DNA from: an uncultured Croceitalea sp.
GTDB taxonomy: Bacteria > Bacteroidota > Bacteroidia > Flavobacteriales > Flavobacteriaceae
DNA length: 64,000 bases
Direction of reading: 5' to 3'
NCBI GenBank assembly: GCA_937926215.1
Contig: CALEYA010000025.1
Coordinates: 5,451-69,450 of the forward strand
Both the position numbers and the translations under genes were made by a program. Numbering within the stretch: the first letter of the stretch is position 1; each line of letters begins with the position of its first letter. Of the stretch, positions 60,215 to 64,000 are shown one piece after another. The notes beneath the pieces are model-generated. The model worked only from the letters and a program-made list of their open reading frames with translations. It did not search any database and was not told the origin of the DNA.

Positions 60215-60614
60215 TTTTACCCTCACTAAGGTCGTTGCCCCAGAAGATCTGGATGCCTTAAACCACGTCAATAATGTTCGCTATTTGCAATGGATCCAGG
60301 AAGTTTCTGAGGGGCATTGGATGCGAAATGCTTCCGTGGCACAACAGGAAGTTTACATCTGGGTGGTACGCAAACATGAAATCACCTATTATGATGCCGC
60401 TAAACTAGGTGAAGAACTTCGCTTGGAAACCCATATCGCGGCCAGCAAAGGTCCAATATCCGTGAGAAAGGTGACCATTAAGAACAATAAAACGAACGCC
60501 TTATTGGTTAGTGCTACTACGGACTGGTGTTTGGTTTCCCCAAAGACGATGAAACCAGCACGGATACCGGAAGAAATTAAACTTCTATTCAATAGTAGTG
60601 AAACTACAACATAA
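60207..60614 (+). CDS. Acyl-CoA thioesterase (4HBT / hotdog fold)
   Basis: DLDALNHVNNVRYLQW. Confidence 0.9.
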   Translation: MNSFTLTKVVAPEDLDALNHVNNVRYLQWIQEVSEGHWMRNASVAQQEVYIWVVRKHEITYYDAAKLGEELRLETHIAASKGPISVRKVTIKNNKTNALLVSATTDWCLVSPKTMKPARIPEEIKLLFNSSETTT

Positions 60615-62157
60615 GACATATCTTTTACTAGGCACGCTCTTACTGCTTACGATAATAAGTTCGTGCAGGAAGGATTTTGATTTTACCGTAAGTTCCGGAG
60701 ATTTACTTTTTTCCAAGGATACCGTGTTTTTGGATACCGTTTTCGCCAATATTGGTAGCAGCACGTATACACTTAAGGTATACAACCAAGAGAATGAGGA
60801 TGTTTTGATTCCGCAAATAGCTTTGGCCAAAGGACTGGAAAGTAATTATAGGCTAAACGTGGACGGTTTGGCAGGGAAGCAGTTTACGGACATACCCCTA
60901 CTGGCCAGGGATAGCCTTTTTATTTTTGTTGAGACTACTGCGGGTGTGGAGGCAACCGCCGAAATTGAATTCTTGGATACGGATGCCATTCTTTTTGAAA
61001 CGCCCAATACTACAAGAAGAGTAGAACTGGTCACCTTGGTCAAGGACGCTATTTTTCTATATCCCGAGACATTGGACGATGGCATGCAAGAAACCTTAGT
61101 GCTTATAGGAGCAGACATGGAGGAAACGGTAGAAATATCCGGTTTTGTATTGGAAGACGATGAATTGGTCTTTACCAATGAAAAACCCTATGTCATTTAT
61201 GGCTACGCGGCCGTACCGGATGGAAAAACACTTACTATACAGGCGGGAACCCGGGTTCACTTTCATAATAATTCCGGTATTCTAGTAGCTCCCGGAGGTA
61301 GTTTACAGATCAATGGCGAACTAAGTGCGGACAGTGAAGTTTTAGAGAACGAGGTGATTTTTGAAGGGGACCGCTTAGAACCGGAATTCGCAAGTGTCCC
61401 GGGACAGTGGGGAACCATTTGGCTCACTACTGGAAGTATGGCCACTATGAATCATTTGACCCTTAAAAATGCGTCCGTAGGCCTGTTGGTGGATGGCTCG
61501 CCCGAAGCTAACGCTACACCAAACCTTAGCTTGCGAAATAGTCAGTTATACAACGCCTCCATTACCAATCTTTGGGGCAGAACGGCCAACATTGTAGCGG
61601 AAAATTCCGTTTTTGGAAATTCCGGTTCCGTATCCCTCTATTGCAATTTAGGGGGGGATTATGACTTTAAGCACTGTACCATTGCCAACTATTGGAGTTC
61701 CGGTTTTAGGAACGCCCCTAGCCTATTGATCGACAATTTTGAAAATTTAGCGGACGGTGGCAGTATAGGCGGAGATCTTAACAATGCAAGTTTTGCCAAT
61801 TGTATAATTGATGGCAATAGGGAGGTTGAATTTGTTTTGAACTCGGATACCGTAAATACATTTCAATTTAACTTTCAAAGCTGCTCCATTAAGTTCAATG
61901 ATCGGAATGGTGATTTTACCAACAATCCTTTATTTGATTTTGACAACAATCCCAATTACCAAGGAACTGTCCTAAACCCCAATACAGCCTTTACCAATAC
62001 TGCCGAAAACCTATTCTCCCTGCAAATGGAATCTGAAGTTATAGGTGTGGGCGATCCCGCTATTAGCGCTCAAGTCCCTTTGGATATTTTGGGCGTAGAA
62101 AGAACCGAAAATCCAGACTTAGGGGCCTTTCAATTCGTTTTGCCCGATATTCAATAG
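60598..62157 (+). CDS. Lipoprotein with Ig-like N-domain and right-handed beta-helix
   Basis: Lipobox ISSC; FSKDTVFLDTVF; LTIQAGTRVHF, FEGDRLE, GQWG; PDLGAFQ ending. Confidence 0.7.
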   Translation: MKLQHKTYLLLGTLLLLTIISSCRKDFDFTVSSGDLLFSKDTVFLDTVFANIGSSTYTLKVYNQENEDVLIPQIALAKGLESNYRLNVDGLAGKQFTDIPLLARDSLFIFVETTAGVEATAEIEFLDTDAILFETPNTTRRVELVTLVKDAIFLYPETLDDGMQETLVLIGADMEETVEISGFVLEDDELVFTNEKPYVIYGYAAVPDGKTLTIQAGTRVHFHNNSGILVAPGGSLQINGELSADSEVLENEVIFEGDRLEPEFASVPGQWGTIWLTTGSMATMNHLTLKNASVGLLVDGSPEANATPNLSLRNSQLYNASITNLWGRTANIVAENSVFGNSGSVSLYCNLGGDYDFKHCTIANYWSSGFRNAPSLLIDNFENLADGGSIGGDLNNASFANCIIDGNREVEFVLNSDTVNTFQFNFQSCSIKFNDRNGDFTNNPLFDFDNNPNYQGTVLNPNTAFTNTAENLFSLQMESEVIGVGDPAISAQVPLDILGVERTENPDLGAFQFVLPDIQ

Positions 62158-62255: not shown

Positions 62256-62987
62256 ATGGAATACTCTTACTTAGTTATCGATCAAAATGATAGCAACAAG
62301 GTCAAGCTCAGTAATACATTGGATGACTTTAATGCTTTACACCATTTAGGAACTGCAAAGGACTGTGATGAAGGTTTTAACCTTATCCTAAAGGTAGTGC
62401 CAGATGTAGTGCTCATCAATTTGGATGAGCATTCGGAAGCTTCTTTTCAAATTGCCTGCCAACTTCATCAATACCTTCAACAAATGCCCCTGTTTATTGG
62501 CATGGCAAAATCCCAAAACTATGCTTATAACGCTATAAAAAACGGCTTTTTTGATTATTGGTTACTGCCTACCAATGAGTTTGAAGTACGCAAAACATTG
62601 CTGAAATTGCAAAAAATCAAACCCAAAACGGATGGCCCTACCAAAATTTGCTTAAAAACGTATAGGGACTACCACTATATAGACACCAATGAAATCCTGT
62701 ATTTAAAGGCAGATAATAATGCTACCGACTTTATTCTGCGAAACGGTACCACCATCAGTGCATTTAAAACCTTAAAATCTTTTGAAACTACCCTACCTAA
62801 GAATTTTATCCGCATACACCAAAGCTACATTCTCAACGTAAAATACATTTCCAGAATTAACTACGGTCGCTCTACTTGCGCCTTAAAAAACGTGAGCAAT
62901 CAATTGCCTTTTTCAAAATCGTATCGCGATCGAATCGATGAATTAAAACGGCTACTTTCTAAAAATGCTATTGATACCTTAAAATAA
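62256..62987 (+). CDS. LytTR-family regulator with pseudo-receiver domain
   Basis: ILYLKADNNATDF, FIRIHQSYILN LytTR domain; receiver has D-to-N and K-to-L changes. Confidence 0.9.
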   Translation: MEYSYLVIDQNDSNKVKLSNTLDDFNALHHLGTAKDCDEGFNLILKVVPDVVLINLDEHSEASFQIACQLHQYLQQMPLFIGMAKSQNYAYNAIKNGFFDYWLLPTNEFEVRKTLLKLQKIKPKTDGPTKICLKTYRDYHYIDTNEILYLKADNNATDFILRNGTTISAFKTLKSFETTLPKNFIRIHQSYILNVKYISRINYGRSTCALKNVSNQLPFSKSYRDRIDELKRLLSKNAIDTLK

Positions 62988-63128
62988 AGATTCACTAGCT
63001 ATTCTCTGTCACATACTAAAAAGGTAAGTAAACTTACTACAACATCAGTTTTTGCCTACAAAAAATGATAGGCTGTCTTTACATTGCATTCACAATAAAG
63101 AAAAACTATCAAATTATTAATCCAAAAA

Positions 63129-63278
63129 ATGAAAAAAATGAAAAAAACACTGATCGTATTCGCCGCCGTATTTATGACCGTAGGATTTACCGCTTGCACC
63201 AATGATTCCGTAGCAGAAGAAGAGCAACTCTTTATTGACGCTACTGATGATGATGATCCAGTAGATGACAGAGAATAG
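63129..63278 (+). CDS. Small acidic lipoprotein / lipopeptide, 49 aa (46 aa from ATG 63138)
   Basis: MKKMKKTLIVFAAVFMTVGFTA|CTNDSVAEEEQLFIDATDDDDPVDDRE*; classic SPII signal; missing from the ORF track. Confidence 0.85.
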   Translation: MKKMKKTLIVFAAVFMTVGFTACTNDSVAEEEQLFIDATDDDDPVDDRE

Positions 63279-63340
63279 GATTAAATAAGCATTTAACAAA
63301 AGGATACTTAGAACCAAACTTCAGTCTAATATTTTAATAA

Positions 63341-63368
63341 CCTCAAACACCTCGTTTGGGGTTTTTTT
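63341..63368 (+). terminator. Terminator after the lipopeptide gene
   Basis: CCTCAAAC/GTTTGGGG stem plus T7. Confidence 0.7.
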
Positions 63369-63415
63369 GTATCTTGTACATACGTAAGTGCCTGCATTAC
63401 GCTCCAAATACTGCT

Positions 63416-64000
63416 ATGAAATTCTGGAAAAAAGCATCACTATTGGTAATAGGCGTGGCCTGTTTTATGTTCTTGGCGTTTGTACCCAGTCAGGAAATTT
63501 CCGATGTTTCCAATACTATTACCGAAATCCTCAATAAAGCCCGTAACGATGCTAGCCTTTCTAGTGAAGAACGTTTCCAGCTTTTGGAAAAAGCTTTGCT
63601 TTTAATAGAACAGGCGAAAACGAACAATTTAGAAGAGGTTTCCTTTGCCGCCTTACGTAGTGGGGATTCCCTACTCTTTAGAAAATTCAACAGGATTGTT
63701 TTGGAAAAAACAAAAGGGGAAGCCAACCCATTTTCCTTAGGGATGTCCCATTGGGACTTAGGGGAGTTCGTAAGGGATTCCAAACCGGATAGTGCCTTTT
63801 ACCATTACCAAAAAGCTTACAAAGCTTTGTCCCTTGCTACACTTGAAGAAGAAAATTCACATTTACCAAGCTCATTACTTTTAGTAATAGCTGGCCTTAA
63901 AGATAATGTCAAAGATTATGTGGGAGCAGAAAAAGATATCATTGCGGTAATTTCACACCTAAAAAAAATTGAGAGGTTGGACCAGCTCTTTAAAGCTTAC
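63416..64000 (+). CDS. Signal-peptide TPR protein, probable TPR-containing sensor histidine kinase (partial)
   Basis: Open 195 codons to the window edge; SHWDLGEF...DSAFYHYQKAYK...KDYVGAE resembles flavobacterial TPR sensor kinases; kinase domain not visible. Confidence 0.7.
   Translation, partial: MKFWKKASLLVIGVACFMFLAFVPSQEISDVSNTITEILNKARNDASLSSEERFQLLEKALLLIEQAKTNNLEEVSFAALRSGDSLLFRKFNRIVLEKTKGEANPFSLGMSHWDLGEFVRDSKPDSAFYHYQKAYKALSLATLEEENSHLPSSLLLVIAGLKDNVKDYVGAEKDIIAVISHLKKIERLDQLFKAY

Follow-up and report, generated by a model that had tools for sequence, protein, structure and literature searches.

Here we describe the end of a 64,000-nucleotide stretch of DNA (the window) from an uncultured Croceitalea sp. 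(Flavobacteriaceae; GenBank assembly GCA_937926215.1, contig CALEYA010000025.1), where a gene for a very small exported pro-peptide lies between the genes of a LytTR-type regulator and a tetratricopeptide repeat (TPR) sensor histidine kinase. All three genes are on the + strand, at the positions given in a first-pass annotation, which was made by a model from the letters alone and proposed that they constitute a peptide-signalling cassette. Specifically, a LytTR DNA-binding regulator with an N-terminal pseudo-receiver (62256..62987, 243 amino acids (aa), assigned by Pfam and an orthologue profile) is followed by the pro-peptide gene (63129..63278, 49 aa) and by the first 195 codons of the kinase gene (63416..64000), which encode a membrane helix and the start of a predicted periplasmic TPR domain and are cut by the window end.

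The pro-peptide gene and its surroundings

The pro-peptide consists of MKKMKKTLIVFAAVFMTVGFTA followed by CTNDSVAEEEQLFIDATDDDDPVDDRE and can be divided into a signal peptide (63129-63194), a lipobox Cys (63195-63197), an acidic linker (63198-63239) and a C-terminal core, ATDDDDPVDDR (63240-63272), after which come a Glu and the stop codon; an alternative in-frame ATG at 63138 fits the MKK start of its homologues. The lipobox reads F-T-A-C, with predicted lipidation, and 12 of the 27 residues in the mature chain are Asp or Glu. Together with the hairpin and T run downstream of the gene (see below), this bears out the earlier description of a tiny acidic lipopeptide with a signal peptidase II (SPII) signal and its own terminator.

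Searches that started from the sensor domain and from the LytTR protein gave 100 related loci with available intergenic DNA from at least 14 genera (Croceitalea, Croceivirga, Flagellimonas/Allomuricauda, Maribacter, Pricia, Ulvibacterium, Robiginitalea, Arenibacter, Eudoraea, Muriicola, Sediminicola, Poritiphilus, Spongiimicrobium and Cellulophaga). A homologous small open reading frame (ORF) was present between the LytTR and kinase genes in all 100 loci whose DNA spans the gap, at the same position throughout and with 94 distinct sequences among them, and the ORF of the window matched the family profile at 6e-18, as the sole match in the 64 kb. The small protein is represented by 234 database clusters, every one of them a 'hypothetical protein' without a Pfam domain, and the named ones are all from Flavobacteriaceae. 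Judged by this conservation, the small ORF is a real gene, far beyond chance. The PG1828 lipoprotein and DUF4995 assignments (Pfam/NCBIfam) were rejected, since they concerned the signal peptide only and were below cut-offs.

Across the family the signal peptide mostly ends G-[FLM]-[FVY]-S-C and the acidic linker carries a conserved hydrophobic pair (E-x-E-[TS]-D ... E-x-L-[FYM]), while the core often begins [AS]-T-D-G and ends with Arg, leaving a tail of usually 0-5 residues. Lipidation is not universal: Maribacter-type homologues and all those of the Winogradskyella type lack the Cys. In Maribacter and relatives (L072, L052, L043, L090, L063, L080 and L099) the lipobox Cys is missing and a CxxC pair has been gained inside the core (e.g. 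ACDGC..DDRR and ACTDCMIDR), a pattern that points to a disulfide or a metal site and to a peptide exported unlipidated; in L056 and L098 a Cys pair is found alongside a retained lipobox. Most Flagellimonas loci moreover carry a second small ORF (63-113 aa; e.g. L002 9594-9812 and L003 9636-9854) between the peptide gene and the kinase, which is not found in the window. This ORF has a signal or lipobox-like N-terminus in most copies, its end ([DN][DE]xR[EQK]L, e.g. DDDREL) echoes the DDDR end of the first peptide, and it resembles a diverged duplicate.

The LytTR domain of the upstream protein covers residues 139-230 (Pfam, E = 5.7e-17), and Response_reg was not detected in this protein by Pfam. 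With a profile of eight orthologues, residues 6-128 align to the solved receivers 3n53 and 6m8o; in the receiver columns the phospho-acceptor Asp (Asp57-equivalent) is replaced by Asn, or by His in one of the eight, and the Lys (Lys109-equivalent) by Leu. By these columns the protein is a genuine pseudo-receiver, i.e. a dead receiver, as the first-pass annotation had called it, and because it lacks the phospho-acceptor Asp it cannot be the phospho-acceptor of the kinase.

The kinase starts with positive residues followed by a hydrophobic helix, and Pfam did not find TPR in the 195-residue fragment encoded in the window. Our view past position 64000 rests on an orthologue (L001; 694 aa, 75% identical) from a Croceitalea metagenome-assembled genome (MAG), which has TPR_12 (residues 154-218), another hydrophobic helix (≈424-445) with a stretch rich in Lys and Arg behind it, HisKA_3 (479-540; 24.3 bits, cut-off 24) and HATPase_c (588-675; 42 bits). 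The next gene in L001 encodes a 225-aa regulator having an intact receiver (DD, D, S, K) and a LuxR-type C-terminus, with NarL/MctR matches that are weak and under curated cut-offs. The kinase domain and partner regulator that had been expected past 64000 are accordingly present in the orthologues, as HisKA_3/HATPase_c and a NarL-type regulator. Under the positive-inside rule, the two membrane helices would make the protein a two-pass kinase with a periplasmic TPR region of ≈390 residues, and its earlier description as an exported TPR sensor agrees with TPR_12 in L001 and with the all-helical hairpin repeats in the AlphaFold2 (AF2) model of a homologue (see below). The earlier proposal that the LytTR protein is the output of this kinase, in the style of Agr/Com, had to be abandoned: it has no phospho-Asp, and a NarL/LuxR-type regulator is encoded after the kinase instead. 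In NCBI the kinase homologues are named 'tetratricopeptide repeat-containing sensor histidine kinase' only. The N-terminus of the Flagellimonas kinase is a good lipobox, LLLLTSCGK (L002 9920-9975), at the place of the plain membrane helix in the window (63416-63490) and in the Croceitalea MAG, and by this sequence some genera may have a sensor that is itself anchored by a lipid.

Immediately past the LytTR stop codon, at 62988..63045 on the + strand, lie three phased boxes with a period of 21 nucleotides (nt) (cores ATTCACT 62990-62996, ATACT 63013-63017 and TTACT 63034-63038). They are weaker than the clade consensus AAAATTCTnaCAgA; in the clade the element consists of AAAATTCTnaCAgA, AAAATtCTaaCAgA and ataTACTAAaac and begins 3-6 nt past the LytTR stop codon. 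The triple was found in 79 of 94 main-clade loci, 76 of which share one register, and a pair of boxes spaced by exactly 21 nt was present in 38/94 loci compared with a mean of 0.07 in shuffles; the strict motif has 67 occurrences at these intergenic sites and 15 elsewhere in 1.9 Mb. This geometry agrees with the nine-base direct repeats and 12-bp spacers of the operators of LytTR regulators, i.e. ComE (PMC4005675) and the LytTR regulatory systems (LRS; PMC6193735), and suggests that the boxes are a candidate LytTR operator through which peptide-gene transcription would be controlled in this clade. The boxes are not present in the distant clade (the Winogradskyella/Psychroserpens group), which has an upstream motif of its own, TAATCCATT followed by (G/T)TCCCTC(G/A), occurring twice 100-250 nt before the small ORF (L112-L191). 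A promoter-like block, CTGTCTTTACATTGCA (63073..63088, + strand), ≈41-50 nt before the peptide start, was recognized in the Croceitalea intergenic alignment; as only 5/94 loci have it, its conservation is at the genus level.

A terminator scan predicted an intrinsic-terminator-like hairpin (63339-63363) with a T run (in all 63339..63372, + strand), which is kept in the intergenic alignment of Croceitalea relatives; a similar hairpin lies directly 3' of the small ORF in 46/94 loci, and no Rfam family matched in the region. A short ORF and a hairpin terminator directly upstream of a kinase gene could also be a cis-acting leader, the translation of which governs terminator read-through into the kinase operon. 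We give this next to no credence and rejected the attenuator-leader model: neither a conserved signal peptide nor a selected C-terminal core (see below) is a feature of attenuator leaders, the stop codon is 60 nt before the hairpin, and in Flagellimonas the second ORF intervenes. The small gene is also bracketed by a 19-nt inverted repeat (17/19 complementary; 62999-63017 and 63260-63278), with one arm just past the LytTR stop codon and the other over the final codons of the small ORF; the Croceitalea alignment shows no conservation around the left arm.

The C-terminal core and the module across genera

In at least seven precursors the core is present in tandem, in two to six copies: six of ATDGDNNPTDDRD in L040, five of STDGDDTPTDDRQ in Robiginitalea (L085), four in L057 with the fourth frameshifted, three of SNDDDDNPTTNRD in Eudoraea (L045), three of FTDGTVNPKDKRT in Arenibacter (L067), three of ACTDCMIDR in Maribacter X9 (L099) and two of ATDGNDVDFSERE in L082. 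The DNA units of ≈39 nt are just 80-86% identical, yet the encoded copies are identical; synonymous/nonsynonymous codon differences between copies were 99/5, 43/4, 22/0, 16/0, 12/2, 8/0 and 1/0 in seven precursors. Since gene conversion would have homogenised the DNA too, we infer selection on each residue of a 12-13-aa peptide, and on these codon counts the C-terminal core is a unit under purifying selection. Its sequence differs freely between species, though it is kept identical within a precursor, and the core of the window, ATDDDDPVDDR, aligns with the multi-copy units of the homologues. Such a selected unit would be expected if the peptide were a ligand or modulator of the TPR sensor. 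As regards L057 (5873-6196, from a MAG), the fourth repeat enters an apparent frameshift (STDGDDSPSPMTGNPQ...) that could reflect either a misassembly or the decay of this copy.

Repeated cores in a small precursor with a leader-like N-terminus, some of them of the CxxC kind, would also suit a bacteriocin or a ribosomally synthesized and post-translationally modified peptide (RiPP), the production of or immunity to which is governed by the kinase-regulator pair. This appears very improbable given that a modification enzyme, an ABC exporter and an immunity gene were found in none of the neighbourhoods, that the signal is an ordinary Sec signal, and that the cores are highly acidic or Lys-rich and unstructured.

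In the main clade the gene order is glutaminyl cyclase, thioesterase, 519-aa lipoprotein, LytTR, peptide, kinase, regulator, an unknown 236-aa protein and glyA; because this whole neighbourhood is syntenic, adjacency there proves little. We therefore turn to distant kinase homologues (sensor identity 27-33%) in Kordia, Flavobacterium psychroterrae, Psychroserpens, Winogradskyella and strain AU392, the flanks of which are unrelated (dnaE/thioredoxin/DUF58, PPIase/DinB, AraC/SnoaL and others). Each of these has an ORF of 57-74 aa with a signal peptide directly upstream of the kinase, and in all but one the regulator is directly downstream, the exception being F. psychroterrae, where its gene is upstream and divergent. 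A scan with distant sensors gave 447 species-level loci, and the best 78 with enough upstream DNA were assessed. With a heuristic for small signal-peptide ORFs upstream, 77 of these 78 were positive, compared with a background of 14/288 other large genes (4.9%), and on reading ≈73/78 proved to be of the type MK[TAS]LKIT...LTVSG...DLLAH-K-x-K...QG, mostly 110-275 nt upstream. The regulator was present in 87/88 distant loci scanned. Thus the earlier expectation that a small SPII ORF would be conserved beside TPR kinases stands: the ORF is kept in 100/100 main-clade loci, with an SPII lipobox in most members, and in the distant, unrelated neighbourhoods a signal-peptide ORF is kept in ≈73/78.

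The LytTR gene, on the other hand, adjoins these genes only in the Croceitalea/Flagellimonas/Maribacter clade, and no LytTR homologue was present within 3-5 kb in any of 87 distant loci. The conserved module hence comprises the peptide, the TPR kinase and the NarL-type regulator, as the distant loci keep these without LytTR; it is highly probable that the three genes function together. Our data suggest that LytTR at most acts upstream, on the peptide gene. The module was seen in 178 examined species-level loci, and there are hundreds more tblastn candidates (≈700 positive loci in all). The peptides of the distant subfamily are Lys-rich, not acidic, and have no lipobox Cys; the common origin of the two kinds rests on gene position because the mature parts do not align. 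The peptide sequence thus turns over completely while the position upstream of the kinase persists. Among the other neighbours, the 519-aa lipoprotein upstream of LytTR (60598-62157 in the window) and a 215-236-aa protein after the regulator (L001 2948-3658) are in synteny throughout the main clade and do not occur in the distant neighbourhoods; neither has a Pfam or NCBIfam match.

The peptide as a candidate partner of the TPR sensor

In the AF2 model of a homologue (61% identical), residues 34-366 are modelled with a predicted local distance difference test (pLDDT) score >90 as about ten helical hairpins, and a single long helix (368-467) runs into a DesK-like kinase core, which in Foldseek also matched DesK. 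For the sensor domain, Foldseek returned the TPR domains of LGN/Pins, which take extended peptides in the inner groove, and the Rap-Phr* complex 6t46 (template modelling (TM) score 0.67; 0.6-0.72 on target). When a sequence profile of the sensor was compared with the PDB, RapF was the best match (E = 7e-6), followed by TPRs of kinesin light chain, which bind acidic peptide motifs. Conserved sensor residues are FRK, HWD, DSAFYHYQKAYK and KDYxGAE. By the model and these matches, the sensor domain is a TPR of the peptide-binding kind, with binding itself a prediction.

The mature peptide and the sensor domain are the most variable parts of the locus. In 78 complete loci the mean pairwise identity was lowest in the mature peptide (0.36) and the sensor domain (0.41), and it rose from the signal peptide (0.58) and the kinase core (0.59) to LytTR (0.67) and the regulator (0.71). 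Similarity between peptides was correlated, in partial Mantel tests, with that between sensors (r = 0.29, p = 5e-4) and between kinase cores (r = 0.24); it followed neither LytTR (r = 0.09, p = 0.07) nor the regulator (r = -0.04). Of the co-variation between peptide and TPR domain looked for after the first-pass annotation, the correlation with the sensor was thus recovered, with a statistic that is inflated by shared ancestry. Five conserved basic sensor columns (R89, R153, K288, R319 and R356 in L001 numbering) are found in kinases paired with acidic cores and are non-basic in four kinases with Lys-rich peptides, where the HWD motif (112-114) changes too; because the Lys-rich group is phylogenetically distant, this contrast may be a lead only.

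The variability bears on whether the peptide is simply a regulated output or a hitch-hiker, i.e. a small exported product under the control of the two-component system or of LytTR, for instance a small envelope protein, which stays beside the kinase merely to be co-regulated and makes no contact with the sensor. The promoter-like block and terminator of its own, together with the conserved operator-like boxes upstream, are in keeping with such a role. Left unexplained would be a mature sequence that evolves as fast as the sensor and tracks it, a 12-13-aa unit multiplied with identical protein sequence, and an adjacency that has outlasted the turnover of the mature sequence and of all neighbours, and we regard this explanation as improbable, although less so than a bacteriocin-like role.

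The explanation that we favour, and consider somewhat probable, is that the peptide is a direct cognate ligand or modulator of the periplasmic TPR sensor. The pro-peptide would be exported via Sec and, in most of the main clade, lipidated; its C-terminal core would dock in the concave groove of the periplasmic TPR superhelix, either clipped free near the conserved Arg or left tethered, and the long stalk helix would relay the change to the HisKA_3 core and so set the phosphorylation of the NarL-type regulator. In this clade the LytTR protein would probably set peptide-gene transcription through the three phased 21-nt boxes. Binding to the TPR domain, proteolytic release, diffusion between cells and control by LytTR are all predictions.

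That the peptide is a diffusible quorum signal is a more tentative proposal, and equally tentative is a family-wide, lineage-specific pheromone system of Flavobacteriaceae, in which clipped linear peptides of 11-13 residues would act from cell to cell on TPR kinases and through these on NarL-type regulators. A released signal is favoured by the multi-copy precursors and the dispensable lipid anchor, and it would be lineage-specific because receptor and peptide diverge fast and together between species.

The lipobox, retained in most main-clade members, raises the alternative that the peptide is a tethered accessory subunit: an anchored periplasmic lipoprotein, not diffusible, that would inhibit, activate or assist the kinase (as a co-sensor) in cis, in the manner of NlpE and CpxP with CpxA or of MgrB with PhoQ, and might report cations, envelope state or proteolysis. 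We judge this unlikely, though it is the strongest competitor to a ligand or modulator. Its location would be the periplasm by default, and here the argument from an acidic surface-export patch, made in the first-pass annotation, proved weak for this sequence. Published minimal surface-export signals of Bacteroidota lipoproteins are K-(D/E)2, Q-A-(D/E)2, SDDFE and SDDDD; in the window, where the sequence is C-T-N-D-S-V, a single residue from +2 to +6 is acidic, and most relatives have E-A-E-T-D, in which acidic residues alternate. Processing or transport genes are not linked, which together with the poor fit to the export signals keeps the tethered subunit alive; moreover, the acidic, DxD-rich core could bind divalent cations, and adjacency and co-divergence fit equally well. 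Anchoring is dispensable, however, given the loss of the Cys in the Maribacter-type and all Winogradskyella-type homologues, selected tandem identical cores are typical of released multi-copy signals and not of a stoichiometric partner, and the Lys-rich tails of the distant subfamily speak against a general acidic bait for cations.

Several observations weigh against the peptide being a ligand or modulator of the sensor. The lipid-anchored form has no evident route across the outer membrane and back, with a sequence in the window that fits the published surface-export signals poorly, and in the neighbourhoods examined the module is accompanied by no protease, exporter or importer of its own. 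Bulk sensor charge and peptide charge are uncorrelated (r = -0.13), the acidic and Lys-rich families align in the signal peptide only (profile-profile), and the partial Mantel result, being inflated by shared phylogeny, lends weak support. Myroides, the most distant kinase homologue (24% identity), has no such ORF upstream. A look for RNA runs, for the window and for two relatives, gave none. Finally, the kinase domain and the regulator are not within the window itself.

We found no published description of this module in the literature, and the databases name its parts generically only. To our knowledge, peptide cell-cell signalling is regarded as a Gram-positive trait, and TPR peptide receptors (the RRNPPA family) are known only as cytoplasmic proteins. 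The marine Flavobacteriaceae are key degraders of algal polysaccharides and colonisers of particles. If the pheromone proposal is true, no peptide quorum-sensing system would precede it in Bacteroidota, and a TPR peptide receptor would for the first time serve as the extracytoplasmic input of a two-component kinase; a tethered co-sensor, for its part, would represent a new kind of accessory partner among histidine kinases. Being short, linear and, it appears, free of modification, the cores can be synthesised for use with cultures or with the purified sensor domain, and the multi-core precursors give a natural definition of the active peptide.

Comparison with known signalling systems

DesK/NarX-type kinases are the class to which the HisKA_3 plus HATPase_c core and the NarL/LuxR partner belong, but known members sense via membrane helices or four-helix periplasmic domains, and we know of no characterised large periplasmic TPR sensor with a linked peptide gene. 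Small exported or lipidated proteins that modulate kinases from the periplasmic side include NlpE and CpxP (both with CpxA), MgrB (with PhoQ) and RcsF; these are folded domains or membrane peptides without multi-copy cores or a TPR receptor, and mostly they are not encoded directly upstream of the kinase.

The Agr, Com and Blp systems share with this locus a peptide gene beside a membrane kinase, as well as a LytTR protein and 21-nt phased direct repeats before the peptide gene. They differ in that the kinase here is not a polytopic HPK10 protein, the phospho-Asp is missing from the LytTR receiver, a NarL-type protein is the cognate regulator and distant genera have the module without LytTR; moreover, no AgrB- or ComAB-like processing or export protein was present among the neighbours in any context examined. 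HdrRM/BrsRM combine a LytTR regulator and a membrane inhibitor with direct repeats upstream of their own operon. The locus described here differs, and the LRS (HdrRM) model was rejected because the small protein has a cleavable signal peptide only and no cytoplasmic part, and because the repeats are downstream of the LytTR gene. Outside bacteria, the yeast alpha-factor (PMC5199041) resembles the multi-core precursors in having tandem identical units in one exported precursor, with short spacers ending in a basic residue, although that system is eukaryotic, with Kex2-type processing and sensing by a G protein-coupled receptor.

In Rap-Phr and other RRNPPA systems, as here, a small gene for a Sec-exported pro-peptide adjoins the gene of a TPR-type receptor (here TPR_12, the 6t46 fold match and the RapF profile match), the active part is C-terminal (for our cores a prediction), the peptide core and the whole peptide gene are duplicated (PMC5199041; PMC9765709), and peptide and receptor diversify fast. 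Identical multi-copy cores with occasional whole-gene duplication are also known from the Rap-Phr autoinducers themselves (PMC5199041). The RRNPPA receptors, which belong to Firmicutes and their phages and plasmids, are however cytoplasmic, depend on import by Opp and have a helix-turn-helix (HTH) or phosphatase effector, whereas the sensor in this Gram-negative member of the Bacteroidota would be a periplasmic TPR domain between two membrane helices, fused to a HisKA_3 kinase; its receptor carries no HTH and the locus no opp genes. In addition, the peptide gene precedes the receptor gene here and the cores are 11-13 aa compared with 5-10. By analogy, then, the system is one that works most like Rap-Phr/RRNPPA, yet it fails the defining features of both RRNPPA and Agr/Com, and the comparison suggests peptide signalling via a TPR receptor, deployed here as the periplasmic input of a two-component system in Bacteroidota.

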